Counted from the whole stretch's first letter, positions 3,093-35,447 are shown. The stretch: DNA of 62,246 nt, filler included, from Kipferlia bialata (GCA_003568945.1; 8 parts of 7 records of this genome joined end to end with filler, not necessarily neighbours in it), one strand, 5' to 3'. Notes: generated by a model from the sequence alone, not told the origin. Translations and numbers: made by a program.

Positions 3093-6000
3093 CTACTCCA
3101 TCCGGAGAGAGTCCTTGCCACTCATCCTAGGGCCTGGGGTTGCCCTGAGGGAGGAGCCTCTGCTCTGCCTGTTGCGCTGATCGAGGGCGGCCTCCCTCTC
3201 AATCTCCCGCACGTCCCTCCCCAGCACCTCGAGGTAGGGCTTGCCTCTGAACTTGAACACCCTGCCGTGCTTGGCCTCGTAGGCCCTCACAGCAGGCACC
3301 AGCAGCGTGTTGACCTTGGTCAGCTCGGCCTGGATCTCGCCCCTCTCCCTGTCCTCACCCATCAGACGGGTGGAGTTGCCACTGAAGAGACGCTCTGGGT
3401 CGGTGGCACCCACACTGAACTCCCGAAGCCTGGCAAGGGTGAACTGCCTCCTGGACACTAGCTCAAAGATGGGGAGGATCTCGTTGAGACGAGACACCTC
3501 CATCTCGCACTTGGTCAGCACCTCTGGGGTGGTGTCGACATGGGCAGCCAGGCCGGACAGGAAGGCAGAGACCTCCTCGGGCTCGGTCTCAAGCACCTGG
3601 GGTGGGCAGACATACGGACAGAGACAGAGATCAAGAGAGAGAGAACAGCCAGCGTAGCGGGTACATCCACCTCAAGAGTAATAGCAAACAGTCACATACC
3701 TGCCATAGCTCCTTGAGCTTGGTCCTGAGGTCGTAGAGACGCCCGGCTCTGTCCTCCTCCTCTGCCTTTGCCTCTGCGGCCACCCTGTCTCTCTCCTCCT
3801 GCTCGGCCTCTCTCTCCGCAGTGATGGCAGCCACCGTTTGCTTCAGAGTGTCCTCGGCCTCCAGCCTCACCGCACTCACACTCAGCTGCATCTCCTCCTT
3901 GCCCAGAAGGGCCACGCGGAGGTCCTCCTGCTCCTTGAGCAGACGGGACTCCAGAGAGGACACGAGAGTCTGATACTTCTCGCGGGTCGCCCTAACGGTG
4001 AGATAGAGTCCCAGGTACAGACCACAAATACGAAACAACAGAGAACACATAACACATAGTTGAATACTGTGGAAGTACTTGACCGTGCAACACATACCTG
4101 GTGAAATCAGCCTTCCAGACAAGGGAGGTGTGGTTAGCCTTCCTCAGAGCCTGCTCAGCACTGAGGCGCTCATTGGCTACAGTCAGAGGGAGACACACAC
4201 TGCTGAACACATAAGTGAATAGATGACACAATGCAAGATATCAGAGTACGTACCCTCAGCGGTGAGCTGCTCGTTGAGTGTCACAATCTGGCCCTCCAGA
4301 TGCTCGACATCACTGCGCATGGCGGCACGGGCGGCGTCGATCTGCTCCTTGGCGGACTGCTCGATGGCCTGCCTAGCAGCCTGTATGGACCCGTCGAGGT
4401 CGGCCTGCCTCTGGAGCCACTGCTCCTCCCTGGCGGCGGCATCCCTCTTGACGGTCTCCCTCTCCATCTCAATCACCTTGGCCAGCTCCGCCTCTCTCTC
4501 CCGCACCTCGGACTGGATCTGGTCCCTGACAGTGCACTCGTACCTGGCGATGGACGCCTCGGCCTGCATCTTGGCATCATCCGCACGCTGCTCGGCCTCT
4601 CTGACTGCCAGGTCGGCATCCGCCCTGATGGACACAGCCAGCTGCTCATACCTGCGGTGAGGGCACCGGCTATATCCACATCGTAGATGGTAAAAACAAT
4701 ACACAATAGTATCAACTAGCGTCTACCTGGCTCTGACGTTGGCCTCGTACTCCTTCCTAGCGGTGAGCAGAAGGGCAGCTCTCTCTCTGTGCTCAACGTT
4801 AAGGGTCTCCCTCTCTCCCTCCACCTCCTCTCTGAGGGACACGGCCAGGGCGTCGTGCTTGTCGATCAGGGACTGCTGGGCACCCAAGAGCCTGGCCTCC
4901 TTGGCGGCCAGCTCTGTCTTGTGGGTCTCGGCCAGCTCCTCCACCCTGGCGTTGCACTCGGACTCCACTCTGGCCAGGGCCTCATTGTGGGCCAGGACCA
5001 GGGCGGAGACCTGGGCATCGGCAGTGGCCCTGGTGCTGGCCTCAAAGTCCAGCCTCTCCTTCTGCCTCTCGGCCTCCGTGGCTGCTGCTGCAGTGGCAGC
5101 CTCTGCCAGAAGGGTCTTGTAGTGGGAGTGGATGCCGTCGACGTGGGAGGCCCAGTGAGCATCGCGGTCACGGTCTCTCCTGGCGAACTCCTCCGCAGTC
5201 TCGGTCGAGAATGCCTGCTTCTCCTCCTCCAGCTTGGTCACCAGGGCCTGCCTGTCAGAGGCCGCCTGGGTGGCTGCTTCGGCCTTGGCCCTGCTCAGCC
5301 TGGCCTCGGTCTCAGCGGTCAGGGAGGCCTGGAACTGGGCCAGCATCCCCTCGTACCTCTCTCTCTCCCTCTCCTCAGCGGCTGTGGCAGCCATGCGGGT
5401 CTCTGCCTGGGAGGTACGCAGCGCCTCGGACAGCTCGGCCTCCTTGGCGTCCCACTGGGAGTGCAGATCGGTGACCAAGGCGTTGTGGTCGTTGAGCTGC
5501 TTCTCGGCAAGGTCATCGAACTTGGCCTTGTAAGATGCAGCCATGCCCTCTCTCTCGGCGTGCACCTGCTGCCTGAGGGCGAGGCCCTCGGCCACAAGCC
5601 GCTGCCTCTCAGTCTCAAGCTGGGCCTCTCTCTCAGCGTGTCTCACAGTGAACCTAGCCTCAGCATCGTGCACTGCTGCCTGGGTCTCGGCCCTCACCCC
5701 TGCAATGACGCCCTCGCACTCGGCCTGGGTCTCCAGCAGACGGGCTGCCAGCTGCTCCTTGAGAGTAGCAGTGGCTGCGGCATGTCCCTCACGCACCCGC
5801 TCGAGGTGTGTGGCGCTGTTCTGCCTCTCGGCGGCCATGTCTGCAGCACATGTGTCCAGGGTAGCCTGGAGATCGGCTGCGTGAGTGGCTGCGAGGGCTG
5901 CCAGCCTGGCGTCTGCCTCCTCCACGCGTCTGTTGGCAGTAACCTCTGCGGCACTGACCCGGGCGGCGGTCTGCTGCCTGTAGGTCCTCTCCAGCTCCAC

Positions 6001-9000
6001 ACCCTGGGCGGCGTATCTGTCTCTGACCTCGGCCTCATAGGATACCCTCTCGGTCTCCACAAGGTGCAGGGCATCGCTGTGCTGCTGGCGAAGGGTGTCC
6101 ATCTCGCCCTGGTACCGCTGCTTGGCAGCCTGTACAAGGGCCTCACCCTCAGCCCGGTGCTCTCCTAGCTTCTCGGCCAACTCCAGCCTGAGCCTGGTCT
6201 CCCTCTCCTCCAGCTCATCTCTGGCTCTCTCCATGGCCTTAGCCCTCTCCCTCTCAGCCTGCGAGGCCTCCTGGGCCAGCTGGGCCTTGAGGGCGTCCAT
6301 CTGGGCAGCCATGTCCCGCCTCACCAGCTCCACAGTAGCCTCGGCCTTGGCGCGGATGTCAGCCTCATACACCAGGCGCTGTCTCTCGCCCTCGGCCTCT
6401 CTCTCCTCCCTCTCCCTCTCTCTTCTCTCCCACTCCTTGGCCTCTGCCGCCATCCTCTCCTGCAGGCTGTCCTGGGAGGCCTGTCTCTCGGCATCAACCT
6501 TGGCCTGGCACTGTCCACGCACACGCTCCACCTCGGTCTGAGACTGCATGCGCACCCCGTGCAGCTCATTCTCGTGAGAGGCGGTCAGGGTTGCTAGCTG
6601 CCTCTCCAGGGTGCGGTTGGCCTCGGCCCTCTCCTCCTGGTGGTGGGTCTGCTGGTTGGCCATGAGGGCAGCGTACTGGGCCTGGACCCTCTCACTGAAC
6701 TCGATCCTGGACACCTCGAGCGCTCTGATACGCTCCCTCTCCCTCTCCTCCATGGCAATGTGCTCGTTGCGAAGGGCCTCCTCCCTGGGCATGAGAAGGA
6801 TGTAAAAGGTGAACCGCAACACAAAGAAACATAGGTATATATGCATATCGTACCTGACTCCCATTCTCACTGCCATGTCGGCCTCAGCATCGGCAATGGC
6901 CGCTGCATAGCGTGCCTTTACCTCCTCCTCCTGCTTGACAACAGACAGGCGGACCTCGGCAACAGCGGCATCGTGAGCAGCAATGAGCTGGGGATGAGAT
7001 TCTACAGTCTAACTGTGATACCGAACTAGTGAAATAGTGCAATGCCCTACCTTCTCTCTCTCCTCCTCTGCGGCTGCGGTGGCCTCTGCCAGGGTAGCGT
7101 CCAGGGCCTGTCTCTCGTGGGCGATGAGGGTGTTGTACCTCTCCCTGACCTGGGCCTCGGCCTCTGTCTGGGCGGCCTTAGCCCTCTCCACACTCTGCCT
7201 GGCCTCTGCCTGAACAGCCTGGGCCTCCTCGGCCAGGGAGTCCTTGAGCTGGGCCAGGGTCTCTCTGTGCTCAGCGTCCCTCTGCACAAGCTGAGCATCG
7301 CACTCCTTGCGGACAGCGGCCTCACGCTCGGCGGCCTCTGCCTTCCTGGCCTCCTCCTGCTCGGCGACATACTGCTGGGCAGCGGCCCATCCCTGGGCCA
7401 CCTCGTCTGCCCTGGCCTTGCTGGTGTCGGCCAGAGCCTGGCGCTCGGAGTCCAGGAGGGAGTCGTACTTGGCACGGATGGACGACTCATACTCGAGCCT
7501 CTCCCTCTCCACAGACTGCCTCTCGCGGGCCACTGCCTCGAGACCTGCCAGACGCATGGCCTCGTACCTGTCGCCCTGGGCTGCCATGTCTGAGGCGTGG
7601 GAGGCCACAAGGGCGTCTCTCTCTGCATCGGCCTCGGCTCTGACGGTCAGCAGGGCTTGGGCATGGGCACTGTGCAGATCGGTGATGTCGCCCTCGAGCA
7701 ACAGAAGCCTCTCTCTGAGTACCTCTCTCTCTGCCTCATGCACAGCGCCCATCTCGGACAGAGCTCTAGCATGAGTCTCGGCCACCTTGTCGGTCTGCAC
7801 CGCAAAGGCCTCTCTCTCCCGCTGCAGCACAGCCCTAGTCTCCTCGGCCATAGCCACACGCTCGGCCTCCACAGCAGCCTGGGCAGCCTCTCTCTCTCTG
7901 TCGAGCTCCACACGCAGAGAGGACAGGGCCTCCTGGTGCTGGGCAGTCCTTGGAGTGAGACACAGTAAATACACATGACAGGGAAATGAGACGAATGACT
8001 ACAGGGATAACACGGCTCTCTCGCCAAACAGGAGTCCATACCTCTTGGCCAATGCCTGAGTGTGCTCAACTCTGAGGGCACTCTCGCGGCGCTCGTGCTC
8101 CTCTCTGGAGGCCTCAACAGCCTCATTGCGCTCCTTGAAGAGGACAAGACGCTCGGCCTCAAGCTCAGACTGTAGCTGGAGGCGCCGGGTCTCGTACATC
8201 TGATCCAATTGGGTGCGAAGAGCAACCTCTCTCTCTGCCTCTGCCTCTGCACGGCGAGTCTCCCTCTCTCCCTCTCCGGCTAGGAGCACAGCTCTCTCGG
8301 CCTCCAGAGCAGCCTCCCTGGCCTTGATCTCGGCGGCAGCGGCCTGCCTGGCCTCCTCGACCTGGGCGTCCATGGCCTGCTGCCTCTGCTCCAACAGCGA
8401 GGCAGACTCAGCCCTCACAGCAGCCAGTCTCTCCTCCTCGGCGGCATGGTACTGCTTCAGCAGCTCGTCGTGGGCTGCCTGTGCCTGCTGTGCCTGGGCC
8501 TCAAAGGCATGGGTCTGGGCCTCCAGGGCCTGGGCAAGGTCGGCACGCAGGGCCTCACTGGCCTGCTGGTGCTGTGCGGCAAGGACCGAGACCTTCTCCG
8601 AGTGGGCGTCCTCGACAACCTTGAGCTTGGCTGCCTGGTCGGCAACAAGAGCCTCAACGGCAGCAGAATGGCTCTCCCTCTCCCTGTTCAGGGACTCAGA
8701 GTGCTGGGAGGACAGCAGCTCTCTCTCAGCTGCAAACTTAGAGGCAGCCTCTGCCTGCCTCTCTCTCTCTGCCTCCTCGGACTTGGCCATGCGGTCCCTC
8801 TCTGCCTCTCTCTCCTGCTGTGCCTCGGCCTGCAGCTGCACACGAAGGCTGGCCATGGAGTCACGGTGGGACGCCAGAAGAGCCTGCCTCTCGACCTCGC
8901 ATCCCTCGGCCAGCTTGACCTGGGCCTCGGCGAGGGAGTCCACCTCACGCTGGATCCGCTGGGGTCAGAACATAAAGCAATACAAAATGAGAGGTTTCAT

Positions 9001-12000
9001 GATACCTTGTCGTTTGCCTCTCTCTCAGTCTCTATCTGCTTCAGAGACAGAGCCTTGACCTCCTCGATACGAGTGTTGCACTCAGACAGCAGGGCCTCCC
9101 GCTCAGCCTCCCGCTCAGCTTCCGTCACCCTCTCGGCCTCCTGCCTCTCTGCGGCCTCGGCCTCGGCCTTGTTCTCACGGGCAGCAGCCTCGGCAGCGGT
9201 GGCAGCCATCCACTGCGCCTCTCTCTGCCGGGCCTCCTCATCCACCTTGGCGGCATAGGCCAGTCTGGCGGCGTCCATGTCCCTTCTGTCTGCCTCCAGG
9301 CCCTCGACCCTCACGGCCATCCCGGCCTCCAGGGCAGCCTCTCTCTCCACAAGCACGGCATCCAGCCTGGCCCTCAGGGCGGCCTCGGTCTTGGCAGCGG
9401 TCGCCTCCAGCTCAGACCGCAGCTCCGCCTCCCTCTCGCGCATCTGGACGTCCACGGCCTCCCTCTGAGCCAGGACCCCTTCGACGAGAGAGGCATGGCT
9501 CTCGGCCAGGGCAGTCTCCCGCCGCTTGTGGGTCTCGAGCAGAGTGGCCTCCCTGGCGGCATAAGCTGCGTCGAGGTCGGCACTCTTCTGCTGCACCAGG
9601 GTCTCCACCTCGCCCTGCACGGAGGAGAGGGCACGCTCCACATCACGCTTAGAAGCAGCAACCTGGGCCTCAACGCGACGCTCACAGTCACGCCTAAGCT
9701 CCTCCTTCTCCCTCTCGACCTCTCTCTCTCTCTCTCTGACCTGGCGCAGATGCCTGTCGTTGGCCCTCTGAGCAGTCTCCTCGGCCTGCTTGACGGCCTC
9801 CTCCACTCTCTTCCGCACTGTCTGCTCGTACTCCAGCCTCTCCTGCTCGAGGCCATCCCGGGCGGCCATCACTTGAGTGTGCACGTCGGCCTTGGCGTCA
9901 AGCCTAACCTGGGGTCAGGGAGATAAGGTAGAGGAGAAAACTACACCAGGAAAATTGAGAATTCGTTACATCATGTATACGCAGCCACATACACGGGTCC
10001 TTAAGCAAACAGTTACCTGGCTGAGCTGGGTGGTCAGTTGGTCAATAGCAAGGGAATGGTCGTGAGTGAGAGCATCAATGCGGGCCTCGGCCTTAGAGAG
10101 GAGGTCCTGCTTCTGACCCTCCCACTCCGACACAAGCCGCTGTGTCTCAGCTGCGGCGGCCTCTGCGGCGGCCTCTGCCCTGGCCTCCACGGCCTCGAGG
10201 GCAGCGGTGTGAGTGGCTACCAGGGTCTCCACGCGGGCATCCGCTGCAGTCTTGGCAGCATCGACCTTCTTCTGGTAGTCAGCCTCAAGGGCAGCCTGCT
10301 CTGACGCAAGCTGGACCCTGGCGGCCTCAAGCGCACGCTCTGCCTCTCTCTCTCTCTCTGCCTCTCTCTGCCTAATCTGGGCCTGGGCAGCAGCGGCCTC
10401 TGCACGGATGGTGTCCCTCAGCTGCCTCTCTGTGTCACGCATAGCAGAGATAGTGGCGTCTACCTCAGAGCGCAGGGCAGACTCCTTCGCAGCAGCCTCC
10501 CTCTGCATCTCCTCCCTGTCTCTCTCTCTCTCCGCCTGGCGCTGAGCTGTGGCCATGGCCTCTCTCTCCCTGTGGGCGGCACTGGCGGCCTCCTCTCTCT
10601 CCTGGGCCTGGGCCTGCAGGGCCAGCAGGGCCTCCTGGTGGCTCCGTCTCTCGGCCTCCATGGCCTCGGCGTGGGAGTCACGCATGGCACTGAGCTGGGC
10701 GTCAACCTCTGCGAAGACAGAGCAACGGAACTGGGCTGCGTCTGCCTCTCTCTGCTCCTCCCTAGTCTTGCGCTCCTCCTCTGCCTCCCTCCGCACCCTC
10801 TGCTCGTTCAGAGCAATCTCAGCGTCCTTCTCCCTCAGTCTGTCGTACAGGACTCTGTCGGCGGTGTCGGCCCTCTCCCTCAGGGCATTGAGCTGGCGCT
10901 GCTTGTCCTGCATCTCGGTCACCATGCGCTGCTCGTGCAGCAGCGCCTGCTTCGACAGCTCCCTGTCGGCGTCTGTGCGGAGCATGGCGGTGCGGGCCTC
11001 TGCGTCCTGCTTGAGGGTGGCCATGGCCTGGGAGTGCTGCTTGTGGAGGGTGGCCTCGACCTGGGCCAGGTGGGTGGAGTGCAGCTTGGCCTGGGCGTCG
11101 GACTCGGCCTGGTACTGGGTCAGCGCCTCCTCCAGCTCCAGACGCAGGGCCTCGGTCTCACGCCTGGGGGTGGGCAGGAACCAATAGGCTAATAGACAGT
11201 AAACATACAAACAAACACGCTTAAAGGTGAGTGGTGAAGAAATAGGAGAACACACCTGTACTCATTAGCCTGGGCGGAGTACTGCTCCTTAATGACAGCC
11301 AGAGCACTCTGCCTGTCTGACCCCAGACACGACTGCAGCTGCAGCTCGCGCTGGTTGGCCTGCTCTCTCTCCCCTGCGATGGCCTCTGCAATGTCTCTGT
11401 CCCTCTCCAGCTGGGCCTGCTGCAGAGCCTGTCTGGCGGCAGACAGCTCGTTGCGGGTCTCCTCGAGCAGGGCGTTGTGGGACTCCATGGCCTCGTCCTT
11501 GGCCTTGGAGAGGGCCCCCTCAAACTCGGCTCTCTTCGAGAACTCGGCCTGCTGCAGCTCCATCAGCTCCTGCTGGCCACTGCGGATCAGCTCTTGAGCG
11601 CGATCGTGCTCCTGATACGTAAGATTTGGTACTGCGATACACATGAAGGCAAGAGGAGGACGGCAACTGACATATATATATATATATATTACATGGACGT
11701 CGTTGTGAGCATCGAGTACCTGTGTGAGCTGGGCCTGCAGGGCCTGGACCTGGGCCTTCATGCCCTCCCTCTCAGTCTCGAGGAGAGAGTTGATACGGGC
11801 TCTGTGGTCTGAGACCTGTGCATCGCACTTTCTCTTGTACTCCTCGTATGTCTCCTTGGCTCCCTCCACACGCCTATCACAGGACGCCTCGATCTCACTC
11901 TGATGGTGAGACACATATAGAAATACATATGAGCAAAAGGCCGGGCGAGAATGCAACCCACCCAGGTCATGTGCACAAGCATATGATGACATATATACAA

Positions 12001-12148
12001 GGAATATGAATACCAGTACCTGTCTGCGCCTGAGCACTTCATCGAGCTCGCTGGTCTTGGCGTCCAGCTTCACCCTCATCTCCTCCCTCTCGAGGTTGAG
12101 CTTGGCACGGGCCTCGTCCAACTCAGAGCGCATGCGGTCCTCTAGGAT
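3093..12148 (-). CDS. 5'-partial giant coiled-coil protein with C-terminal MAP65/Ase1/PRC1 microtubule-binding domain (at least 2,664 aa, 13 exons)
   Basis: Exons 12020-12148, 11720-11899, 11256-11611, 10017-11163, 9006-9908, 8042-8958, 7051-7948, 6854-6987, 4727-6784, 4254-4651, 4098-4176, 3700-3991, 3093-3596 sum to 7,995 nt in frame. The last exon has ATDPERLF..STRLMGEDRER..ELTKV..L...VRAYEAKHGRVFKFRGKPYLE, matching the PRC1/Ase1 conserved motif. Confidence 0.85.
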
Positions 12149-12210
12149 CTGGGTCAGATGGGGAGGAGGGGGGGGGGGGGGGGGGGGGGGGCCCCGGAGT
12201 CAAGAGACTA

Positions 12211-13604: not shown

Positions 13605-16376
<2,772 letters not shown>

Positions 16377-17912: not shown

Positions 17913-18012
17913 ATGTCCTGCCCACATTCAACCAGTACATGAGGATACTGGTGGGGATGGGAGGTATATGCTATATATACACAAGATATGTATTTATCTA
18001 CAAGATTCAGTG

Positions 18013-18044
<32 letters not shown>

Positions 18045-18933
18045 TTATATACTTCTACCCACATTCAACCAGTACATCATGATACTGGCGGGGATGGGAG
18101 GTATGTACCAGTATTCAAGTACATATATATATATATATATATACTATATGTGTACATTCAACCAGTCCATATACTAACCCTCCAGACCCTGTCCCCGGCC
18201 TAGCTGTCACATCCAACTATGTCAGAGTCATATATACATATATGTATATATATATATATATATAGAGGAGAGTATATTTATATATATGATATCCCTCTCT
18301 TACCCTAGACCCTGTACCTGGCCTAGCTGTCACATCCAACTATGTCAGAGTGATGTATGCACTCACACTGGGGATATCAGTAGGGGATCCTGTGTTGATC
18401 AGGTATAGTATATATCTTCACAATGATTCATTCATATCTATCTCTCCCTCCCTCCGTCACTCTCAATAAGTACCCTATCATACTTTGTTTCTTACGCGAT
18501 ACCCTTTCTTTACCGTTTCTTACGCGATCAGGGGTGGCAGAGGCACTGGCAAGTCCTATGCAGTGTCTGCATACGCACTGAAGCAGAGTGGCATGTCGAG
18601 GTATGGGTCTATGTATGTATATTTGTGTGTGTGTTAGTACCTAAGTATATGAAGATTGCAGGGCTATCAAGGGAGGTCTGCGGATGGATTTTGGTTTGTA
18701 TATACATTATCAGGGTTGTATATATATATGTATGTATCCACTCTGACACTAGTGTTCTGTGCCGCGTGTCCCCTGCCACCAACATATATCCATCACGTTC
18801 TATTATCTAAATATGTATATATATGTGTGTGTGTATGTAGTTATATATCCTCATATCAGTGTCCTGTGCCGCGTGTCCCCTGCCACCAGCCCCAGGGACA
18901 TACAGGCACTGTCATCAGCCGCAGAAGGTATAC

Positions 18934-18968
<35 letters not shown>

Positions 18969-20814
18969 TATATGATATATATGGTATATATACATATATA
19001 TGTACACCAGTCCCAGGGACATACAGGCCCTGTCATCAGCCAGAGAAGGTATATCTGCATATATATGTGTATACAATATATAGTACACATATGTCTTTGA
19101 CTCTCTCTAACTCCAGCCCCCTCTGATGGATCCAGCCATGGCAAGACACACACTACTGTCTCTCTCTTTCTATATGAATATATATGTATATATATATCTA
19201 TATCTATATATGTATTAATACATATATCTCACCCCAGCCCCCTCTGATGGGTCCAGCCATGGCAAGACAGGACTTGGGATAGACTTGGGTGAGATACAAT
19301 ATTGATATAATAATGATAATATATACACATATATATATATATATATATATATTAGACCTGGGTAGGAGTCATCATACCGCATATATATCGCACCTTTACT
19401 CACATGCTACATGATTTCCCCCCCTCTTTCCCCTAGGTCGCACCCTCTCTGCCACCATGGTGTCCACTGTGATCTCTCTCCACCCACCCCCCCTCTCTCT
19501 CTATATATATACTATAGTGCTTACTGTCAGGTCGTACCCTCTCTGCCACCATGGTGTCCACTGTTGCCTCCATGGCCACATCCATGGCATCCATGTCTAG
19601 GTATAGGTTGTGTATACGCCTGTGTATATACAACACTATATATTAATTCAAGTACATTGTGGCATCAATATCAAGGTATAGACATAGATAGAGTCTAATC
19701 AATAATAATATGTAATAGGTAGATTCATATATATATGCCTATGTACTCTTAAATGTCATTATATACAATTATATATATATATGTATATATCTAATCATGT
19801 CAGGTCGATGCTGCCCTCCAGTCCCTCCCTGACACATATGAATATATTATATATACTATTACATATATATATATATATATATTCTTTAATGTGTACTCTT
19901 GTGATACCGGGACACTTACCATCAGGTCGATGCTCCCTTCCAGCCCCTCCCATCACCCCTGTACACCCATATATATATATATATATATATACCTATATAT
20001 ATATATATACACATACATATATATATATATATATGTCTATCTAATCCTGTCAGGTCGATGCTCCCCTCCAGTCCCTCCCTGGCCCTCACCCACATGGACC
20101 AGCACGGGTATGATATATGCAAAGAGTATTTAGTGTATACAGTAACTTTTCGTACTTTCATTGTTTTAGTATCCAAACATACCATCTTGTATGCACTCAG
20201 ATTCAGTGGATACATATATCCATATCTATATCTAACCCTAGTAGCAATGGCGCCACTCTTGTTGTCCTAGACACTGTAGACCATACCAACACCCATACCA
20301 TATATATATATAAATACTATACTATATATATACATATATAACTAACCCTAGGTCTAATGGTGCTACACTGGTTGTCCTAGACACTGTAGACCAGACCAAC
20401 ACCCATGCCATGCACGCACTCAAGGAGAGCATCGACTACATCCAGCACCCAGTCATGCTATCTAGGTATATATAGTGTAGTATACAGTGTATATACTCTA
20501 TACTATAGTATATGTATAGTGTATATATACTATATATACCCATGCCATGCACGCACTCAAGGAGAGCATCGACTATATCCAGCACCCAGTCATGCTATCA
20601 AGGTATATATAGTGTAGTATACGGTGTTTATACTCTTTATGTCTCTCTCTCTCTCATGTATATGTAGTCTCTCACATACCAGGTGTGTATTAGACCCTGA
20701 GCTTGAGCAGAAGTCTCTCTCTCTCTCTCTCTCGCGCTCTCTCTCTCTATATATATACATATATATCTCACTCTAGATGTGTATTAGACCCTGAGCTTGA
20801 GCAGAAGGCCCTGG

Positions 20815-20848
<34 letters not shown>

Positions 20849-21462
20849 AATATCTAACCCTAGGTGTGTATTAGACCCTGAGCTTGAGCAGAAGGCCCTG
20901 GTGGTACAGCTCAACCCACTGAAGGAGGAGGATTTCTACCAGGTATACATCAGTATACATCAGTATATACGAGTCTGTTTATTAGTGTGTTTACAAGTAT
21001 AGTTCTGGCCCTGGTATGGTACAGCTCAACCCACTCAGAGAGGAGGACTTCTATCAGGTGTGTATGTGTATGTATATTGTATGTATTGTCATGTATCCAA
21101 GGGGATGACTAGCCTTACACCCAGGTCTTTGACTCTCTCTTCTCCACATTTGTCATTAGTCTATTTGTGTTAATAGTGGTATCACTGGGTATTAGTGTAT
21201 ACCTCACCCTCTCTGCCTACGTTGCGTATTCTTGTGTACCTCACCCCCAGGTCTTCGACGCTCTCTTCTCCCCCGAGGAGATACTCACAGGGGACACACA
21301 GGAGATATGTCAGGTAGTGGTTATATATGAATGTGTATGTATATATACAATTGTATGTATACATATTGTGCTATGTGAATATTTACCAGTTATACATACA
21401 TGCCTGAGGAGATACTCACGGGGGACACACAGGAGATATGTCAGGTATATATGTATGATATA

Positions 21463-21494
<32 letters not shown>

Positions 21495-22276
21495 GATATG
21501 CTGGACTATGTATATATCTGCATGTTATGTATATATATGCCTGATTAGATACTACAACACCCAGGAGATATGCCAGATATCAGTTCAGTCTCGAGTATAT
21601 ATGTAGACTCTATTTGCAATCAGAAATTATTATGTATACACATATTACTATGAGAGCCTCATCCCAGTCCCTGGCCCATGCCATGGTCATCCTGAGAGTG
21701 CATTTGTGTGTACTATTACAGACATGATATTCATATATATATATGTATATATGTATACATTGCATTCATATATTGTGTCTGACACTCAGTCCCTGGCCCA
21801 TGCCATGGTCACTCTGAGGGAGTCCCCAGCATTTGCAGGTAATGTGTACATGTATATTATATAATACGTGTAATGTATTTCCTGTGAGATGGTGAGATCA
21901 GAGCTGTTATACGGGCAGTAATTTGTAATTGAAAACACATATTCTCTCTCTCTCCTATACATATATACATACATATTTTGATCATCTAGGTCTCGGGGAG
22001 ACATACGCCCTAGGCTCCAACCTATTCTTCCTCTCTCTCTCTGTCTCTCTCTCTCTCTCTGCAATACTCTTAAACTTATGATCGTAGGTATAGGCTTAGG
22101 AGAGACCTACACCCTGGGCTCCAACCTAGTCTATCTCTCTCTCTCTGTCTCTCTCTCTCTCTCTGTATATATGTGTGTATTGGTGCTGATCGTAGGGATA
22201 GTCCTAGGCGAGGCCTACACCCTTGGTTCCAATATATTCTCTCTCTCCATAATAGACTTAAACTAACAATTCAGGT

Positions 22277-22313
<37 letters not shown>

Positions 22314-22566
22314 AATACTCTTTACTAACAATTCAGGTATAGGCCTAGGAGAGGCCTACACTCTAGGCTCCAACATATTCTTCCTCTCTCTCTCTCTCTC
22401 TCTCTCTTCAATGCTCTTCAACTTAAATTTCAGGTATCGGTCTTGGAGAGGCCTACACCCTAGGCTCCAACATATCCCCCCTCTCTCTCTCTCTCTCTCT
22501 ACTATGTAGTATTACTTACCAACCAGGCATTGGCCTAGGAGAGGCATACACTCTAGGCTCCAACCT

Positions 22567-22603
<37 letters not shown>

Positions 22604-22918
22604 AATACTCTTAAACTAATGATCGTAGGTATAGGCCTAGGAGAGGCCTACACTCTAGGCTCCAACCTGGTCCTGGGCTCTAACATAGTCTCTCTCTCTC
22701 TCTCTCTTGGTGATGAGGAGGACATAGATGGTATAGTGGAGATAGATGGTATTGAGGGTATAGAGGGTCTAGATGGTCTAGAAGGCCTGGGCGGAGAGGA
22801 AGAGGGGGAGAGAGAGACTGGCTCCAAGAGACTCCTCTCTGACTGGCAGTGTCTGCACAGACACCCCGAGATAGTCGCCAAGGTGCTATATATATATACA
22901 TATGGACGTATATATAAG

Positions 22919-22949
<31 letters not shown>

Positions 22950-23006
22950 GTATATAGGATACGGTGGTAGTGTCTACACAGACACCCCAAGATAGTGGCA
23001 AAGGTA

Positions 23007-23058
<52 letters not shown>

Positions 23059-23135
23059 GTATATATGTATATACACAGTTTACTGCCTCACCTTTAGGCC
23101 GCCAAGCTAGCCTTCTCTGCCTTCCTGCGTGAACA

Positions 23136-23171
<36 letters not shown>

Positions 23172-25768
23172 CATATATATTAATATATATACTACCCCCA
23201 GGCCGCCAAGCTAGCCTTCTCCGCCTTCCTGAGGGGTAGTGAGACAGAGGTGCAGAGGTGCATGGACACCCTGACTCAGGCATTAGAACCATGCTTAGGA
23301 GCAGATAGGTATTAGGATATATATATATATATATATGCATGTATACCTATATATATATATGGAGAGAGACAGAGGTGCAGAGGTGCATGGACACCCTGAC
23401 TCAGGCATTAGAGCAATGTCTGGGTACAGATAGGTATTATTGATACTATGTATAAACTGGTAGTATACTATACCTATATATATATACAGAGAGAGAGAGA
23501 GAGAGAGTCTGGGGACAGATAGGTATTAGGATATATATTCTTGCTATGGTCCGCTTATATATTGTGTATTCACCCCCAGCCTAGCTCCTGTCTCCAACAT
23601 GGGTCTGTTACTGGGCCACCTCTGCCCTGGCAGACACCCAGTGTCCATATCTAGGGGACCTATTGCTAGAGAAGGTATGTATATATACGTACATATATTG
23701 TATACATNNNNNACCTATTGCTAGAGAAGGTATGTATATATACGTACATATATTGTATACATACACCCAGTCTCCATAGGAAGGTGACCCATTACATCAG
23801 ATGGTATGTGGATACATATATATATATATATGTAATGTTAGTATATGTGTATATAGCAAGAGGACCCATTACATCAGAGGGTGAGTGTATTGTAGTGTAT
23901 TCCGACTTATGCGTGTTTCTGTTTGTCTCACCTTTCGGCAGTGAGAGTGACGATGCTGTCCACCCCATCTATCTATCTATATATATATATATGTCTTCCT
24001 ATATATATACTAATCATAGACAGCGAGAGTGACTCTGACGATGCTGTCCACCCCATCTCAGACTTTGTGGGTCCAACCACAGACAGTGGACACTTCAACC
24101 ACAGGCCAAGGTATATATACATTTATATATATATATAGTATATTCTGTCACTATTTCTATATGTACATAGTATACCTGTCCACAGACAGTGGGCACTTCA
24201 ACCACAGGCCAAGGTATATATATTGTAATCTGTGACCAACCCACCTATATACTCTCTCTCTCTCTCTCTCTCTATGTATATAGTACTATATCTTACCCCT
24301 CAGATTCCTGTATGTGGAGGACATGACCATGGACAGGTCACCATATACACCATTAGATACACCATATATACTCCATATACTGTCTCTTTCTCTCTCTCTC
24401 TCTCTGTGTGTATATATATATAGATATATATACATATACATATATATATATATCTTACCCCTTAGGTTCCTGTATGTGGAGGACATGACCATGGACAGGT
24501 CTCTCTACCACTGGATAGGCCAGATCACAGGTATCTATGCCACTCTGTATTCAAATGTATATAGTGGTAGTTCAATCTATATTTATATAGCTACATATAT
24601 CTCATGCCAGGTCTCTCCTCTTCCCCCGACCAGACCACCCTGCTGGGGTCACCATTCACAAGAGACAGGGACGAGGAGGCTGGGAGGAGGTATTGAATCA
24701 TGTATAAATATATTATATATATAGGACAGTACTTATAGTGATGTATATATATAGTAGTCTATTGACAAGGGACAGGGACGAGGAGGCTGGAAGGAGGTAT
24801 ATATGCATTGATACTTGTATATTATATAGCTTATATATATATATGTACTTGTAGTGTTATATATATAGTGGTCTATTGACAAGGGACAGGGAGGAGGAGG
24901 CTGGGAGGAGGTAGTATATCATGTGTATAGTCAGTGTTTATAGTGGTATACATATCACCCTTCACAAGGGACAGGGACGAGGAGGCGGGAAGGAGGTAAT
25001 ATTTGTATTGGTACTTGTATATTATATATCTCATATATATATATGTACTTGAAGGGTTATACATTTATAGTGGTCTATTGACACGGGACAGGGACGAGAA
25101 GGCGGGAAGGAGGTATTATATCATGTGTATAGTCAGTGTTTATAGTGGTATGCATATCACCCTTCACAAGGGACAGGGACGAGGAGGCGGGAAGGAGGTA
25201 TGTTCCTGTCTACATACAGTAGCCATGCAGTATTCATGTTTCCCTAGTTTACATCATCAAGTGATTGTTGAGTACATTCCCATAATGATACACTCTCACC
25301 ACTAGGTACCGTGACCGTAAGGACAGGGAGATTGCCTCTCTCCTACAGCACCAGGGACAGTGGGTGTGGGGAGGGGGGTCAGCAGGTGTGTAGAGATATG
25401 ACATCACTTCTTTGCCCTCTATATATATAGTTGGAGGATTATGTGTTTTATACTCACTCCAGGCACTCTGGTGTCAGTCACCCCTTCCCTTCCTGTCTTC
25501 AACACCCTGTGTGCATATGCCCAGGCATGGGGCACGGCAGGGGGGGATGCGGTGCCAACACTGGCTGTGGACACACACCCAGGGCAGGTATACACTCTAT
25601 CGTACTATATACTACCCTCTGTAGTATTACTGAAGGCATATATCTATTGGGACCCTTACATGCTAGTCTCTCTCTCTCTCTTCATCTCTCTATTACTGTA
25701 ATTATAGGTCCATCCAGCCTCTGTGGATAAGGATATGAACATCCTAGTATTTGGTGACCCCTCTGACA

Positions 25769-25799
<31 letters not shown>

Positions 25800-26065
25800 C
25801 TCACCTTATAAGGTGCATCCCGCCTCGGTTGATAAGGATATGAACATCCTTGTGTTTGGTGATCCCTCTGACATGGACACGGCCCTAGCACACCCATTCA
25901 CAGTCATGAGGCTCACACTTGGTTAGTATATATATATAGCTATAGAGAGAGAGAGAGAGAGAGAGAAATGTAGTGTATATGGATATGTATATATATATAT
26001 GTGTTGATATGGACACAGCCCTGGCACACCCATTCACAGTCATGAGGCTGACACTTGGTTAGTAT

Positions 26066-26119
<54 letters not shown>

Positions 26120-26594
26120 GTGTATATGGATATATGTACATTAATATACATTGATATGGACACCTGCCTGGCACACCCATTCACGGTCATGAGGCTGACA
26201 TTAGGTATGCTTTTAGTGTATGTGTTCAATTCTGTTGAGACTCTCACATCCCATGTGACGTGTTCACCTTTGTGACTGACAGCCTTGCCCATCCTGCCAC
26301 TATATATATATATATATCCATATTCATATATAAATACATATATCCTACTACTACTATACTATCCTACTACCTCTTACCTCTAGACGATCAACAACCTACC
26401 TATATTAACATCCACTAATATATATATATATATATATAGGCGTGTATATATATCCTACTACTACTATCCTACCTCTTACCTCTAGACGATGTCTTCACCT
26501 TTGTGACTGACAGTCTGCCCATCCTGGCTGCAGCAGCATGTACCCAGGCCAGGGACAGACTGTGGGAGGTATGTATACTAAGATACATATATAT

Positions 26595-26625
<31 letters not shown>

Positions 26626-29110
26626 GAGAGAATGCATGTACCCAGGTATGCATACTAAGATACATCTATAACAATACTTGTGCTATATATTATGAGAGTA
26701 TGAACACAGGCCAGAGACAGACTGTGGGAGGTATATTTCTTTCTCTCTCTCTCTCTCTCTCTAGCCCCCTATTAACCCACTCAGTTTGTGCAGTCTGTGG
26801 GTGAGCGTGCCTTCTGTGGGGTTGTGCAGGACACAGTCACTGAGATCATATTGGAGGCCTTATCTGCAGCAGGCAAGGACTCTACTTATCCTCATTGTTG
26901 TATGTGTTTAGTATTATGTATTATGTATTGACTGATATATATTGTATGATTACTGATATATGCTAACCCCCTAGGCACTCTCTCCACCCTCCTGACTCCC
27001 ACTGGTGACACCGACACACCCAATGCAACACCTGGGACACCAGTGGTCAAGCAGCCTGAGGTATTGATATGCATATGTATACACATTCCTATATGGGTTA
27101 TACAGGTGATTATGTATGCAAGCATTTTCCCTCTAACCCCCAGTCTGATGGCAACCAGTCCATAGTGAGGGAGCACAAGTACACTCCCCTCCCCCTCGAC
27201 GCCTCTGCCATCCTAGCACTGTTCAAGTTCCCATCGCTGCCCTCTAGGGGTGTAGCACTGGCTACTAAGGTACTCACTCTCGTGTAACTATGTTGGGTCA
27301 GACTTCCTCTGGTTATCGTGTAATTGCCTCCACTATTTATGGTGTTTCCTGTGCTATCGTGTAGTGTTTCTTACTCCAGGGCCTGGCTGATGGCATTGCC
27401 TCTAGTGAGGGCCCAGTTAAACATATTGATTCACATCAAATATAGTAATATGTATACTACTTTAGTACTATTGGGTAGTTATTTCTCACTCCAGGGCCTG
27501 GCTGATGACATTGCATCCTGTGAGGGCCCAGTTGAGACTGCCTCCTTGGTCATAGCAAGGAGGGCAATGATCACACTGCTACAGGTTAGTGAGATCATAG
27601 TATCAGTATATATATACGAATATGTATGTATGGTATGGGTATATGTATATTTTCACGTGGGGGACAGACCTGTATATATATATATATATATATATGTAGA
27701 GAGAGAGAGAGAGAGATGCTGACTCCTCCACTTCCTGACCCCCGAGGGTACCATTGAATTATGTGACATATAAATATATATAATAATAATATATATAATG
27801 TTGTTTGTGTATGTGTGTATAGGGAGAGATATTGACTCCAGGTCCTGACCCCTGAGGGCACCATCGCCCCCAGGAGTGCCAGCAGTGGTCTAACCGAGGC
27901 ACTGCAGCAGTACTATTACCAGGTATCGGGAGAGATATGTGTATTATATTGAAGTATGATTGAAGTATGACCGAATTCTCTACCTTACCCTAGCACCAGG
28001 CCCACTTTTCCATCTTCATCTCTCTCTCCATATATATACATACATACATAATATATATATATATATGTGTATGTGTGTGTGTACGTCTAACCCCAGCACC
28101 AGGCCCACTTCTCCATCGGCGCAGTGCTCAAGGACGTGGTGCTACACTCACTAAGCAGCAGCACAAGTACAACCACACCTATAGAGGAGGGAGAGGACAC
28201 GTCTCTACAGTCCCTACAGTACTGGAACGATGTCCACTCCTCTACTAAGGGAGAGAGAGAGATCGAGGCTGATGCTGTACCCTGGGGTGCCCTTGTCTAT
28301 GCACCCAGGCTCAGTGACCCAACAGCACTGGACACAGAGGCATTGAGGGGGCAGCTCAATGTGAACCCAATCACAAGGTATACTGCACATTGTTTGTATG
28401 TAGGAGTGTATATGTATACCCATATGACCCCAGGCACTACTTTGGGGGTCCAGACAGAGACAGGATGTCTGTGGAACTGTTGACACCAGACTCGACAATG
28501 GCCAGGTATTGATACACATACACCATATAGTATATACATATATACGCTACTATACAGTATATATATGTATATATACATGTATAGGGGGAGAGTGTATCAG
28601 TGGATATGGAACTGTTGACACCAGACCAGACTCGACAATGGCCAAGTATCCATACTATACAGTATGTATTATCTTCATTCCCAAATCATCTATTGTCCAC
28701 CGCCGTCTCTTCGAGGACTCTGCAATATATACAGTATATATATAATTATGTATATATTGTAGTGCTATGTAGTATTATTCTATTCCTAACCATCTAGGGT
28801 GCACCACCGCCTCTCTGAGGCCTCTGCTGTGCTGCAGACAACAGACACAGACTCGGTGGCACAGGTATTGAATATATGATAGCCGCTAAGGTATTAAGAG
28901 GTGTTATGTTCATGAATATTTGTTTATGAGTAGTATGCTGTATATATTCATTTCTCACCTAAGGTCCACTCCCCCGTCCTCCTCTCTCTCTCTCTCTTTT
29001 TCTCTATCTCTCTCTCTCTATTCATTACCGTACATCTTTACCTCATGTTCACTCCTCCGTGACACTGACACCCCATATTAGTATATACACATTCGAGTAT
29101 TTTCCACATA

Positions 29111-29147
<37 letters not shown>

Positions 29148-29274
29148 TTCTCACCATAGGTCCACTCCTCCCTCCTCCTCGCTCTCTCTCTCTCTCTCTC
29201 TCTATTCATTTGTGTATTATATATCTTTACCTCAGGTCCACTCGTCTATCCTGTGTGACACTGACACCCACAAG

Positions 29275-29322
<48 letters not shown>

Positions 29323-30117
29323 TCATTAATCTCTATTCAATAATATATATATACCTTCTTCTTACCACAGGTCCACTCCTCCATCACCGATACCCACAAG
29401 GCAGGGTCATATTCATATATATATATATATGTATATGTAATACTATATACATACCTTTACTCCAGGTCCACTCCTCCATCACTGATACCCACAAGGCAGG
29501 GAGGGATGCAGACCTATACACCCATACATACATGTGTATATATGTACGAATATTATATATCTTTAACCCAGGTCCACTCGTCTATTCTGCGTGACACTGA
29601 CCCCCACAAGGCAGGGAGGGATGCAGAGAGTGACACCAAGAGATTCAACATGGTGGTGGTGCTCTACATACCCGTGGACAGCATCAGAACAGGTATTCTA
29701 TGTACATGCCTGCTTATGTATCTCGTTGTATGTTCTTCTCTCTATTCCATATCTCACCCCAGGCTCTGTGCCCCTGTGCCTGACCCCCCCTGGCTGGTTC
29801 AGCACATATGTCACAAACCCATTCCACCATGTAAGTATGGTATATATATACCCATTCCACCACGTAAGTATTGTATATATACATGCACATGTATCATGTA
29901 TTCGTCTATACTTACCCTCTATATAAGTATGTATATATATATATGCTGGTTCAGCACATACGTCACTAACCCATTCCATCATGTAAGAATGGTATATATA
30001 CACTAGTATATGCGTCATGTATTTGTATACACTTACCCTCTCTATATATATGTATATATATATGCCTCCCCCCCCCCCCCCTGTCAGCACAGACGTCACT
30101 AACCCATTCCATCACGT
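17913..30117 (+). CDS. Internal fragment of a very large, many-exon gene with an AAA+-like P-loop (midasin/dynein-related style)
   Basis: Spliced exons 18309-18402 and 18532-18600 give GDPVLIRGGRGTGKS (Walker A); 20352-20465 gives a Walker-B-like LVVLDTVD. Dozens of further short exons lie on the same strand. Confidence 0.6.
21990..22690 (+). repeat. Array of 7 diverged copies of an acceptor plus exon 5' end (GIGLGEAYTLGSN), separated by (CT)n
   Basis: Copies start at about 21990, 22088, 22196, 22337, 22434, 22527 and 22629 (the last is the intact exon). Confidence 0.92.
24655..25200 (+). repeat. Array of 6 copies of an exon 3' end plus GT donor
   Basis: ACAAGGGACAGGGACGAGGAGGCNGGRAGGAG|gta ending at 24689 (intact exon), 24796, 24910, 24995, 25112 and 25197. 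Confidence 0.92.
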
Positions 30118-31259: not shown

Positions 31260-34200
31260 TTAGTACACCTTCTTGATGGCGGTGGCCAGGAGGAGGGGGT
31301 TGCGCCAGTAGGGGCTGACGGGGATGACCTAGGGTCAGGGACAATAGTACGTATCCACAGAACGAGTACATAGAACAGCACATAGAGAGTGATAGTATGG
31401 ACCTCCTTCTAGCAGAAGTATGTATGTATACATATAGTGAATAGGATGCAGTATGTAAGGTACCTTCTTGTCCTTGCACCCTGCCAGTCCGTACACAGCC
31501 ATCCTGGCGGCCCTGACAGACATCTCCTCAGTAAAGGACATCTCGTCCTCAATCTCTACGTACCTGAGAGTAAGACATATTCACATACATACATATATAT
31601 ACACATATACTGAGAGAGAGAGAGAGACGGACATCTCGTCCTTAATATAGACATACCTAAGGGTTAAGTGAGAGAGAGAGAGAGATAGAGGCAGAGAGAG
31701 ACACCACGTACTGTCCAATCATGGCCAGGTTGGTAGAACCCTCAGGGATCACAGGGGGACGGTCGGCCATGGCACTAGGGGTGAGATCCATATATACGAA
31801 GGCACCTACACAATACAAGGGAGTAAACTAGTTAGTGAGTTCATGTATATATATATGCATATATATATATATACCCACCGGTTGTTGAAGTGTGCATCGA
31901 TGTATGGCATGGAGCATGGGATCACATTGACGATGTCCTGCTCGTGGCCCTGGGGGGTGAGACAATACACACATTACTACCCACTCTGACAAGTATTTGA
32001 TACTATAACAAGGATTGAGTAATGTGACTAGAACCTACACGTACCTCCATCCTGAGGTGGCTCATGAGTTCAGTAAAGATGTCTGCACCGGTGGCCTCCC
32101 TGACAGTCTTGTTGACATAGTCACCTGGGTCAGCAGGAGTATCAGTACAGTATATCAGTCAGTGTATGTACTGATATAGACATAGTCACCTGTGATGTCT
32201 GTGTGCAGCATGTATCCCCAGAACACAGTCTGGTTCTTGGGCTGGCCCCTGGGGGTTAGACACTCATACTATGATGTGTATATGATATGTATGTGTATTC
32301 ACTATATATATAGCACAGTCTGGTTCTTGACCTGGCCCCATATATATGTTTCAGCCAGTGAACATCCATAGTCAGTATATATGGTAGAACCACTACATAC
32401 ACTCTACACATATAGAGTGTACCTGAAGTGTGGCTGGGCAGGTACAACGATGGACATGCGCCACCTGGGGGTGAGGGGACATATAAGGTTAAGTAGAGAG
32501 CACTAAAGGGGACACACACATAGAGAGAAAGTAGAACGTCTACTGCCTGGGGGTGAGGGAAAAGAGGCAACGAGCTATATATACATGAGATAGAAGGAGA
32601 GAGAGAGACTCTCACACCTAGAGTCCACCAGTGTGCACAGAGCACCGGAGCCTGGCACATTGCCAGAAAAGGCCTCGATCTCCTAGGGTATCAGCAAGGG
32701 TATCTAAAATCTCAGATAGATTTGAATGCGTGTCCACATGGTATACACATATATAGATAGAGAGAGACAGAGTATAGTGTGTTACCTTGAGCAGTCTGTT
32801 TCCCTTCATGGTCACTGTGAATGAGTGCCAGTAGGACTCCTCCCACTTGCCTGGGGGTAAGAGGATACCTATTATAAATATGTATATATATATATACTAC
32901 TGCACAAGTGAGGGGACATCCACTATCCCAACCTGCGAATGGCTCTGGGTAATGGTCCTATTACTAATGGATACACAATAATGGATGAATATTTGTATAC
33001 TGCAAATCATTATACCTCATACTAAGTATATAAATATGTACATAGGAGTATATATATATGAGACCTAATACGTATATATATATTTATATTTACATACATA
33101 AAAATAGTATATGTATATGAGACCTCATACACTTATCATACCTGCGAATGGCTCTGGGTTGCCAAACACACCCTCCCTCTTGGTGCAGAGCTTCCTCCAG
33201 AGGTCAAAGGACTGGGGGTGAGACATAAGGGATTGGCGCATTACTCACAGAGAAATAATGAACCATACACCACGTAGAGTATCTATATATGTGTATGGAT
33301 ATATATACCTTGGGGTTCTCTGGGGCAGGGGGTGCGGCATGGGTGAGGTCACCCAGGACAGCACAGTCACACATGGCGCCTGGGGGTAAGGTATATATAT
33401 ACACTAGTATATATACATTTAGAGAGAGAGAGGGGGAGGGGGAGAGAGATGTATATGCATGCACATACCGTTAGTGATGCAGCACATGTCCTGGGGTCTG
33501 AGTGTGATGGTCTCTGGGGTGCCTCTCCTCTCGATGGACAGACCAGTCACAGTGATGCCTAGGGGTGAGGATAGATGAGGAGACATTGAGGGAGATCTGG
33601 GAGAAAACACAAATACATACACATGTCAGTAAATGGGATGATGGTAATGCACAATGTACCTTCGCCTGGTGCCAGAGTGACGTCCTTGACGAGGCAGCCC
33701 AGCTGGAAGTCGACGTTCTCACCCTGAGGTCAGTGACATGACGGCGGAGTATTCAAGATAGAACTTGCATATACAGGATGTGTGAAATTATATATATACA
33801 TCATTACCTCGAGGTGCCTCTGGAGAGGCCTGATGACAGACTCGTACTGGTTGAGAGGGGTCCTGGCAACGGCACCCAGGGTGTCAAACTTGTTGAAGAA
33901 CTTGATGCACCTGGAGTGAGAGAGGGAGTGATAGAGAGAGAGAGAGATGGAGAGGGAGAGACAGAGGGAGAGAGCATGCTATTTGCTGAAGAACTTGATG
34001 CAGCTGGAGTGAGAAAGTATGGTACTGTAAGTACTAATATAAGGCGGTGATAAGAGGGAGAGTACCCCCACCTGCGCATGTATCTCTTCATATTGAACAC
34101 TGTATATACACGTATCTACAGAAAGACAGAGACTAGAATATATACATGCACAGATATAGAGAGATGAGGTGAGAGAGATGGAGACTCCACCGGCGCATGT

Positions 34201-35182: not shown

Positions 35183-35216
<34 letters not shown>

Positions 35217-35333
35217 CTGTACCTCGTATGTGCTCTTTCCGAGCTGGTCGATGGAGGGTGTGGTGCTGAGGAGGTCCCAGAAGTTCTCGTAGAGGTCGAG
35301 GTTGAGCATGCGTCCACCACGGCAGACAAAGCC
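31260..35333 (-). CDS. ohyA: Oleate hydratase (MCRA family) coding region, about 19 short exons
   Basis: GFVCRGGRMLN..YENFWDLLSTTPS, TNFWFMWQTTFAFQPWSSVFEMKRY, RTPLNQYESVIRPL, SFTEEMSVRAARMAVYGL. TAA at 31260. Confidence 0.92.
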
Positions 35334-35396
35334 CTGAGGGTTAGAGAGAGAGGAACATGGGAGACAGGTAGTGGTATATATGGGGATGGGCGAGGG

Positions 35397-35433
<37 letters not shown>

Positions 35434-35447
35434 GTTTCCCCCCCAAA

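Follow-up and report, generated by a model that had tools for sequence, protein, structure and literature searches.

The echo-bearing gene

The window analysed here is a stretch of 62,246 nucleotides from Kipferlia bialata, in which short contigs are separated by N spacers, and the arrangement described below lies in the contig at 17913-30117. Every count refers to this window of one sample. K. bialata is a free-living fornicate, for which the draft genome paper gives 124,912 annotated introns (PMC5874029).

At the locus, 31 exons read off the sequence form one open frame of 976 codons, and the conceptual protein matches the NCBI entry K. bialata KIPB_004976, partial, at all 976 residues. The product is likely a divergent dynein-heavy-chain-like AAA+ protein (AAA+ ATPase), as suggested by a Pfam match to AAA_7 (E = 1.8e-4, under the cut-off) and by Atlas feature matches of 0.93 to dynein/AAA clusters. 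A weak search returned no longer relatives of the protein, and no close paralog of the gene was found, there being a single protein match and, across three exons, a DNA contig of flat depth.

Partial copies of the exons, here termed echoes, lie in the flanking introns: A' echoes repeat the acceptor half of an exon, and B' echoes its donor half. The open-frame chain and the identity to KIPB_004976 establish that the middle copies of the A'/exon/B' triplets are the real exons. Contigs from two read runs, X1 (DNA) and X2, were compared with the locus over 17913-18945 only, with one echo junction checked; X2 was taken as RNA by guess, with which its GT-AG joints fit, and its contig is called RNA-type below. 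The principal features are as follows.

18309-29830, + strand: host gene fragment, 30 coding exons (24 with echoes), open frame, match to KIPB_004976
18753-18781, + strand: A' echo, case 1; AG intact, 1 silent difference; junction present in DNA contig, skipped by RNA-type contig
18860-18927, + strand: true exon, case 1; RNA-type contig with 0 other letters
19005-19048, + strand: B' echo, case 1; GT intact; 5-nt overlap with A'; RNA-type contig passes from 18927 to exon 19238
19049-19116, + strand: 68-nt GT-AG inner intron of complete appearance, lying between B' of case 1 and the A' (19117-19148) of the following exon; unused in mature RNA
20242-20301, + strand: A' echo, case 2
20352-20465, + strand: true exon, case 2; sole open frame fitting the chain
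20538-20602, + strand: B' echo, case 2; 11-nt overlap, one A'/B' mismatch
20683-20815, + strand: two stacked A' echoes, case 3 (units 20683-20713 and 20777-20815)
20864-20942, + strand: true exon, case 3
21007-21057, + strand: B' echo, case 3; 9-nt overlap; 2-nt insertion adjoining the overlap
21125-21145, + strand: A' echo, case 4
21251-21313, + strand: true exon, case 4
21403-21444, + strand: B' echo, case 4; abuts A'; 2 silent differences
21987-22570, + strand: six stacked A' echoes of exon 22629-22882; up to 4 synonymous states at one codon
24761-25201, + strand: five stacked B' echoes of exon 24611-24689, which has no A'
25708-25769, + strand: A' echo, case 5; silent at each of its 7 differences from the exon
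25813-25921, + strand: true exon, case 5
26005-26204, + strand: two B' echoes, case 5 (units 26005-26057 and 26152-26204); 6-nt overlap, one A'/B' mismatch
34785-35146, - strand: two-sided case in another gene and contig; exon 34895-34985 with two A' and one B', gap 4 nt

The annotated set comprises 114 exons in 8 genes. Outside the set are the genes of 1-12210 and 46800-52000, the small ones of 36500-40100 and 59500-62200, a pair of doubtful first exons at 40158-40420 and an N-gap duplicate at 23713. Echoes were accepted at a local score of 29 with an anchor at the splice site, the one exception being an unanchored B' at 58785 that was kept. The first annotated exon of the main gene, 17914-17963, was excluded from the echo search and from later counts. 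In this first exon of the deposited model the RNA-type contig diverges from the exon before 17921, and a 47-nt DNA contig there has a depth of 1100 compared with about 390; the exon is probably itself an echo.

Several further details of the gene model were recorded. A 33-nt exon candidate at 23771-23803 is interrupted by an in-frame stop and was reinterpreted as an old echo. A 50-nt duplicate at 23658-23762, 100% identical, spans a 5-N gap and is likely an assembly overlap; it was not counted. The annotated coding exon 22629-22882 holds a CT microsatellite (22686-22707) resembling the spacer that follows the exon's echoes, and this region is possibly an exonised echo unit. The intron at 26873-26974 starts with GC rather than GT, as the reading frame demands.

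Arrangement of the echoes

A search of both flanking introns found 79 echoes, 44 on the acceptor side and 35 on the donor side, at 43 of the 114 exons of the 8 genes. The main gene bears them at 24 of 30 exons and the other genes at 19 of 84, ranging from 1 of 12 exons in the phosphofructokinase gene to 7 of 19 in the gene at 31464-36015. Polarity is strict, with A' upstream of the exon and B' downstream, and none of the 12 unanchored matches was a convincing wrong-side half; whole-exon duplication followed by deletion, which predicts such halves, was rejected. The repeat unit is minisatellite-sized (median 108 nt, range 33-230 nt over 56 innermost units), the spacers have a median of about 71 nt, nearly equal to the 81 nt of echo-free introns, and the arrangement is that of tandem duplication.

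The splice dinucleotides are kept as AG in 35 of 44 A' echoes and as GT in 32 of 35 B' echoes, and 13 of the 79 echoes are broken by a stop or a frameshift. The 40-nt intron flanks of the echoes show identities of 0.66 and 0.61, compared with 0.60 and 0.57 between unrelated introns, and flank identity did not track exon divergence. Thirty of the 43 echo-bearing exons are one-sided and 13 are two-sided, with A' and B' occurring together on one exon at the rate expected by chance (10 against 9.3 expected, of 30; p = 0.71). Two-sided exons bear longer echoes (p = 0.015 and 0.006), one-sided echoes in the main gene scale in length with their exons and end near mid-exon (rho 0.67, p = 0.013), and the unduplicated remainder of an exon is never shorter than 19 nt for any echo.

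Echo-bearing and other exons start with GT in 12 of 30 and 21 of 84 instances (p = 0.16) and end with AG in 21 of 26 and 67 of 88 (p = 0.79), which gives recursive splicing via AG|GT no clear support. A nested splicing scheme that pairs every A' acceptor with a B' donor was rejected (same-intron table 10/9/3/7, p = 0.43), and a preference of the junctions for microsatellites gained no support, dinucleotide repeats being no richer there than in the rest of the spacer (p = 0.65).

Tiling of the two halves

The preliminary description drew attention to five triplets in which the A' echo stops about where the B' echo starts. All five are present, with an AG preceding each A' and a GT following each B', and their measured overlaps are 5, 11, 9, 0 and 6 nt. 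As a rule, however, the pattern does not extend further: the 8 other two-sided exons are all gapped, 3 of them by no more than 11 nt. The offsets of the 13 two-sided exons, among the 114 exons, are +11, +9, +6, +5, 0, -4, -6, -8, -18, -18, -20, -41 and -171.

It had further been argued that a shared breakpoint would be unexpected by chance, and that the offsets should be compared with random breakpoints. Within this window, 8 of 13 offsets lie within 11 nt against 1.9-5.6 expected, where the cut of 11 nt was chosen post hoc and the discovery set contributes 5 of the 13 exons, and p ranges from below 0.001 to 0.26 according to the null. A uniform null gives p = 0.004, or 0.027 with a 20-nt floor; nulls drawn from one-sided exons give p <0.0001 by lengths and 0.002 by fractions; permutations give 0.08 and 0.013; and a gene-matched comparison (7 of 10) gives 0.26 by fractions and 0.0004 by lengths. 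The excess of near-tiling is thus modest and null-dependent, and it comes mostly from breakpoints that lie in mid-exon. Thousands of echo cases should exist genome-wide, which makes the breakpoint question directly testable.

Overlaps occur in 4 of the 13 two-sided exons, all four from the original list, and the A' and B' copies of the overlap are identical in two of them and differ by one base in the other two. In simulation, exact abutting produced apparent offsets of -5 to +12 (95%), with values of at least 5 in 12%, so that part of each supposed pointer can be alignment overshoot; 6 of the 13 offsets fall within this simulated range, and no overlap exceeds 11 nt. The reading of the overlaps as pointers is a weak one.

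Echoes in DNA and RNA-type contigs

A 6190-nt X2 contig has 0 other letters relative to the full exons, carries the full-exon letters at five exons and, through its GT-AG joints, omits the echoes at four introns. It proceeds from 18927 to exon 19238, where it has the full-exon letter, and so passes over the B' donor, the 68-nt GT-AG inner intron and the A' acceptor. That RNA bypasses this normal-looking inner intron for the outer sites points to exon-definition-like splicing in a short-intron metamonad.

A 712-nt X1 contig at a depth of 393 covers A' 18753-18781 and continues unbroken through the spacer and the exon, and this gap-free, single-copy contig implies that the echo is real DNA. The same contig also runs from 18183 to 18307, omitting one echo unit and carrying two other letters, which appear to be the echo's own. 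This join is ambiguous, because the omitted unit and its copy are identical over 32 nt, long enough for a 31-mer graph to collapse them; alternatively, it may reflect an echo-less haplotype or a deletion. No second allele was found in the contigs over 17913-18945.

Silent-site divergence of the echoes

In the main gene, echoes differ from their exons at 93 of 331 four-fold sites (0.28) and at 48 of 1188 zero-fold sites (0.040). By codon position, the differences number 34, 17 and 138 (34, 19 and 140 over 55 echoes), and transversions alone show the same contrast, with 46 at four-fold and 26 at zero-fold sites. The ratio of zero-fold to four-fold divergence is 0.125 in the main gene (95% CI 0.087-0.182, bootstrap over 24 exons) and 0.166 (0.117-0.234) over all 43 exons. 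Since a dead copy gathers changes at all sites, a copy decaying neutrally since its birth would be unable to give a ratio below 0.5, and values of 0.5 or more arose in 0 of 10,000 bootstrap samples for the main gene. Such a protein-coding signature is unexpected in intron DNA that is spliced out. Four conserved genes give a ratio of 0.52 (CI 0.32-2.2; 13 echoes at 11 exons), and plain decay may hold for the echoes there.

The bias is also found among the echoes themselves. Compared with one another they give a ratio of 0.19; single codons show three or four synonymous states across echoes, and, of the 14 codons in which three or more states occur, 7 specify a single amino acid throughout. Private changes, present in one echo only, fall at 13 of 109 four-fold but only 11 of 372 zero-fold sites (p = 6e-4). 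Changes confined to the exon, where all stacked echoes agree against it, number 1 of 26 at four-fold and 0 of 89 at zero-fold sites. Rapid change in the exon lineage was therefore rejected as the cause of the bias, given the single exon-only change and the silent bias of the private echo changes. In a test for concerted evolution, a 202-nt higher-order repeat was present, yet four-fold divergence between echoes (0.40) exceeds that between echo and exon (0.28). The higher-order duplication, of two B' echo units with a period of 202 nt, occupies 24864-25200.

Changes from G/C to A/T outnumber the reverse by 42 to 12 at zero-fold sites and stand at 32 to 49 at four-fold sites (p = 2e-5, with stacked echoes not being independent). 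These opposite base biases indicate two processes, and a thin layer of AT-biased decay lies over the silent-site bias. Silent divergence is furthermore greater towards the splice end of the echo than towards the break end (58 of 157 against 34 of 157, p = 0.003), alignment bias affecting only the last 5 nt, and the divergences of A' and B' are negatively correlated over 13 triplets (rho -0.72, p = 0.005, post hoc).

Proposed origin of the echoes

The echoes of the main gene may be, with a probability of about 0.5, fragments of other working alleles that arose by mis-repair or unequal exchange between diverged homologs. As they are diverged at silent sites, have intact splice sites and lie between foreign flanks, another working allele would be their simplest source. 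Alleles whose introns can barely be aligned would pair only in the short exons, and repair of a break in an exon would copy the homolog's sequence into the adjoining intron. Of the two junctions, one would be resolved by homology inside the exon, and hence be invisible, and the other closed by microhomology end joining, so that a half exon from one allele would come to lie next to a full exon from another; further copies would be stacked by unequal crossovers later on. Breaks would need about 20 nt of exon as an anchor, or longer copies would be purged, and the lack of any echo leaving less than 19 nt fits either such an anchor or selection against longer copies. An anchor of this length would place A' ends and B' starts alike in mid-exon, often near-tiling. 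The copies would be tolerated because each has one splice site only, which would imply splicing of an exon-definition-like kind.

Allele capture requires a silent-site diversity near 0.25 and outcrossing, both of which are assumed here. The gene listing for K. bialata in PMC8516963 includes Spo11, four Dmc1 entries, Msh2 and PolQ as present and Ku70 as absent. Microhomology joining at the echo junctions is presumed, although these show no excess of dinucleotide repeats (p = 0.65). In metagenome contigs scanned for alleles, 33 and 81 pattern matches were obtained, none of which was confirmed, and no related locus came to light. The model does not predict outright either the silent gradient towards the splice end or the negative correlation between A' and B', and the ratio of 0.52 in the four conserved genes counts against it there. 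If the echoes are captured alleles, one genome would hold a readable sample of the alleles of a population, and outcrossing with very high diversity would be implied for a free-living fornicate known from one draft genome.

The preliminary description also proposed that a complete exon copy had been inserted into a broken copy of itself. Joined together, A' and B' would read in frame and, in 4 of the 5 cases, yield the exon's peptide with 0-2 residues changed, and so, had an insertion occurred, the two copies would be different alleles. With that proviso insertion is possible for some triplets, and under allele capture a single insertion at one break may account for a minority of the triplets. 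It does not serve as a general rule, since most echoes are one-sided (30 of 43 exons), the two halves co-occur at chance and their divergences are unequal: A' and B' of one triplet are heterogeneous (p = 0.037), and in case 2 the B' divergence (2/60) is far below that of A' (8/54).

A broader form of this idea, compatible with allele capture, is that most two-sided exons record one break that received a 200-250-nt insert of another allele, comprising the exon and its flanks, with small overlaps or trimmed gaps. The limit of 11 nt on the overlaps, the 6 of 13 offsets that fit exact abutting and the longer echoes of two-sided exons are consistent with it, as is the insertion of hotspot-derived fragments at breaks described for mouse meiosis (bioRxiv 10.1101/2020.06.23.168138). 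Nevertheless, it accounts poorly for the chance co-occurrence of A' and B', their unequal and negatively correlated divergence and the mismatched overlaps, and the scaling of one-sided echoes with exon length indicates that mid-exon breaks alone give tiling. For most two-sided exons, a single insertion is a tentative possibility.

Alternative explanations

Diverged gene copies, whether from hybrid subgenomes or from former tandem paralogs, could have been merged by repeated template switching, leaving echoes as remnants of the lost copies. This would explain the silent-site bias and the unalignable flanks as well as alleles do, and without any need for standing hyperdiversity. It is nonetheless fairly unlikely, for a codon with up to four synonymous states, together with the silent bias of the private changes, would demand at least four donors, and no paralog remains.

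Alternatively, the halves might be under selection because they are used, through rejoining of A' and B' in DNA, as conversion donors or as minor alternative exons. Low zero-fold divergence, the in-frame A'+B' products, near-tiling in 8 of 13 exons and the omission of an echo unit from the DNA contig between 18183 and 18307 would all be expected, although the 32-nt identical run of that unit can collapse in the assembly graph. The preliminary description had offered a ciliate-like rejoining of this kind as one of two readings and had pointed to A'-B' junctions as its mark. This rejoining found no support: over 17913-18945, neither the X1 nor the X2 contigs, from which rare forms drop out, contain the case 1 joint that would lead from A' 18753-18781 to the latter half of the exon. 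The RNA-type contig carries full-exon letters only, 30 of 43 exons are one-sided, 13 of 79 echoes are broken, two of the four overlaps are mismatched and the zero-fold changes show AT-biased decay. Selection through use is accordingly quite unlikely, and there is but a slim chance that Kipferlia, outside the ciliates, keeps split spare exons under purifying selection and swaps or rejoins them in DNA.

A short-read assembler could also have placed exon halves of two haplotypes in tandem. Allelic copies would differ at silent sites, and the published draft is an Illumina/SPAdes assembly (PMC5874029); moreover, the duplicate at 23658-23762 spans an N gap, 13% of sampled words from 18000-27900 are absent from the index of the DNA run, and 18018-18297 is without contig cover (flagged as skipped repeats). 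Mis-assembly is, however, distinctly unlikely in view of the independently built DNA contig at single-copy depth that spans A' 18753-18781, spacer and exon without a gap, the stops and frameshifts of 13 of 79 echoes, which are unlike working alleles, and the presence of six different stacked copies.

It is very unlikely that the echoes are ordinary same-chromosome tandem duplications that decay neutrally and tile by chance: while the geometry, the ratio of 0.52 in the conserved genes, the near-identity and homologous flanks of some echoes (20777-20815) and the gene-matched fraction null (p = 0.26) agree with this, the bootstrap samples, none of which reached 0.5, and the silent-biased private changes reject it for the main gene unless intronic copies mutate several-fold more slowly than silent exon sites.

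Comparison with known systems

The closest counterparts are the lancelet "mirages" of Adh3, the globins BflGb6 and BflGb9, and PGBD5, which are described as tandem duplicates of 5' or 3' exon-intron borders, many with AG or GT, in units of 10-160 nt with 81-100% identity, and are reported to be harmless to splicing (PMC3087553, PMC3902484). The Kipferlia echoes similarly span either exon-intron border, keep AG/GT, are minisatellite-sized and are skipped in RNA. Unlike the mirages as described, they occur in a metamonad, where 24 of the 30 exons in one gene and 43 of the 114 in the whole set bear them, frequently at both borders of an exon; a silent-site bias has been measured in them, and stacked copies appear little homogenised. 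The globin paper calls the origin of mirages unclear, and the word "synonymous" is absent from its main text (PMC3087553). In the BflGb6 mirage alignment, compared by eye, 4 of 5 silent differences between the haplotypes' exons recur in the repeats of haplotype 1; that these repeats carry exon variants of haplotype 2 would fit a mixing of alleles, and gives no direction. The echoes are border duplications of the mirage type, at very high density, and carry a coding signature that points to allele capture, which, if correct, would give mirages a testable mechanism.

Single-locus parallels are known in humans. In CBS 844ins68 an intron/exon junction is duplicated, the distal site is used and the upstream exon piece is spliced out, as for A' (PMC2630376), and in the 37-bp VNTR of F7 IVS7 the donor pseudo-sites are repeated and the first is used, as for B' (PMC1557585). 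As reported, both differ from the echoes in being single loci with near-identical copies, without allele-like divergence, in the setting of long-intron mammalian splicing.

The paralogous MDSs and pointers of Oxytricha-type ciliates resemble the echoes as local partial coding duplicates with short overlaps, but the ciliate pieces are described as being joined into an expressed somatic gene (PMC9797194), whereas Kipferlia expresses the uninterrupted copy, with no joined form in the one case tested. A pointer, moreover, is repeated at the ends of ciliate pieces, while in Kipferlia only 4 of 13 two-sided exons overlap, and identically in 2. The Rogers model of intron gain, in which an AG|GT segment is tandemly duplicated, shares with the echoes a local duplication hidden from the mRNA; unlike it, the echoes sit within introns between existing exons, which they lengthen, and none creates a new intron position.

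As to mechanism, end joining at meiotic double cuts in mouse yields inter-homolog microhomology joins with duplications or insertions of 15-349 nt (bioRxiv 10.1101/2020.06.23.168138), and template switching between diverged repeats in yeast is a mechanistic analogue (PMC4215184). Those events, as described, are rare, experimental and at hotspots, whereas the Kipferlia arrangement is fixed and gene-wide, and a link between them is a proposed one. Among the matches listed, outside subscription papers and judged by title or the start of the abstract, none on Kipferlia introns or exon duplication concerned such echoes, and a search over the same kind of literature for exon-border repeats with synonymous bias found none.

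Other loci in the window

On the - strand, a 65-nt intron at 32125-32189 begins with the same 11 bases as the exon that follows it, and may possibly represent a Rogers-type gain through a duplicated AG|GT segment; the intron at 31564-31711 shows this signature more weakly, over 6 bases. Exact nested tandem repeats of 23 and 55 nt run across a gene end at 1468-1578 and are either a recent duplication or an assembly artefact. The phosphofructokinase gene at 13761-16237 (- strand) is an intron-rich gene for the pyrophosphate-dependent enzyme with an echo at 1 of its 12 exons, and its nearest full-length relatives, of 551 aa, are 59% identical over the first exon.
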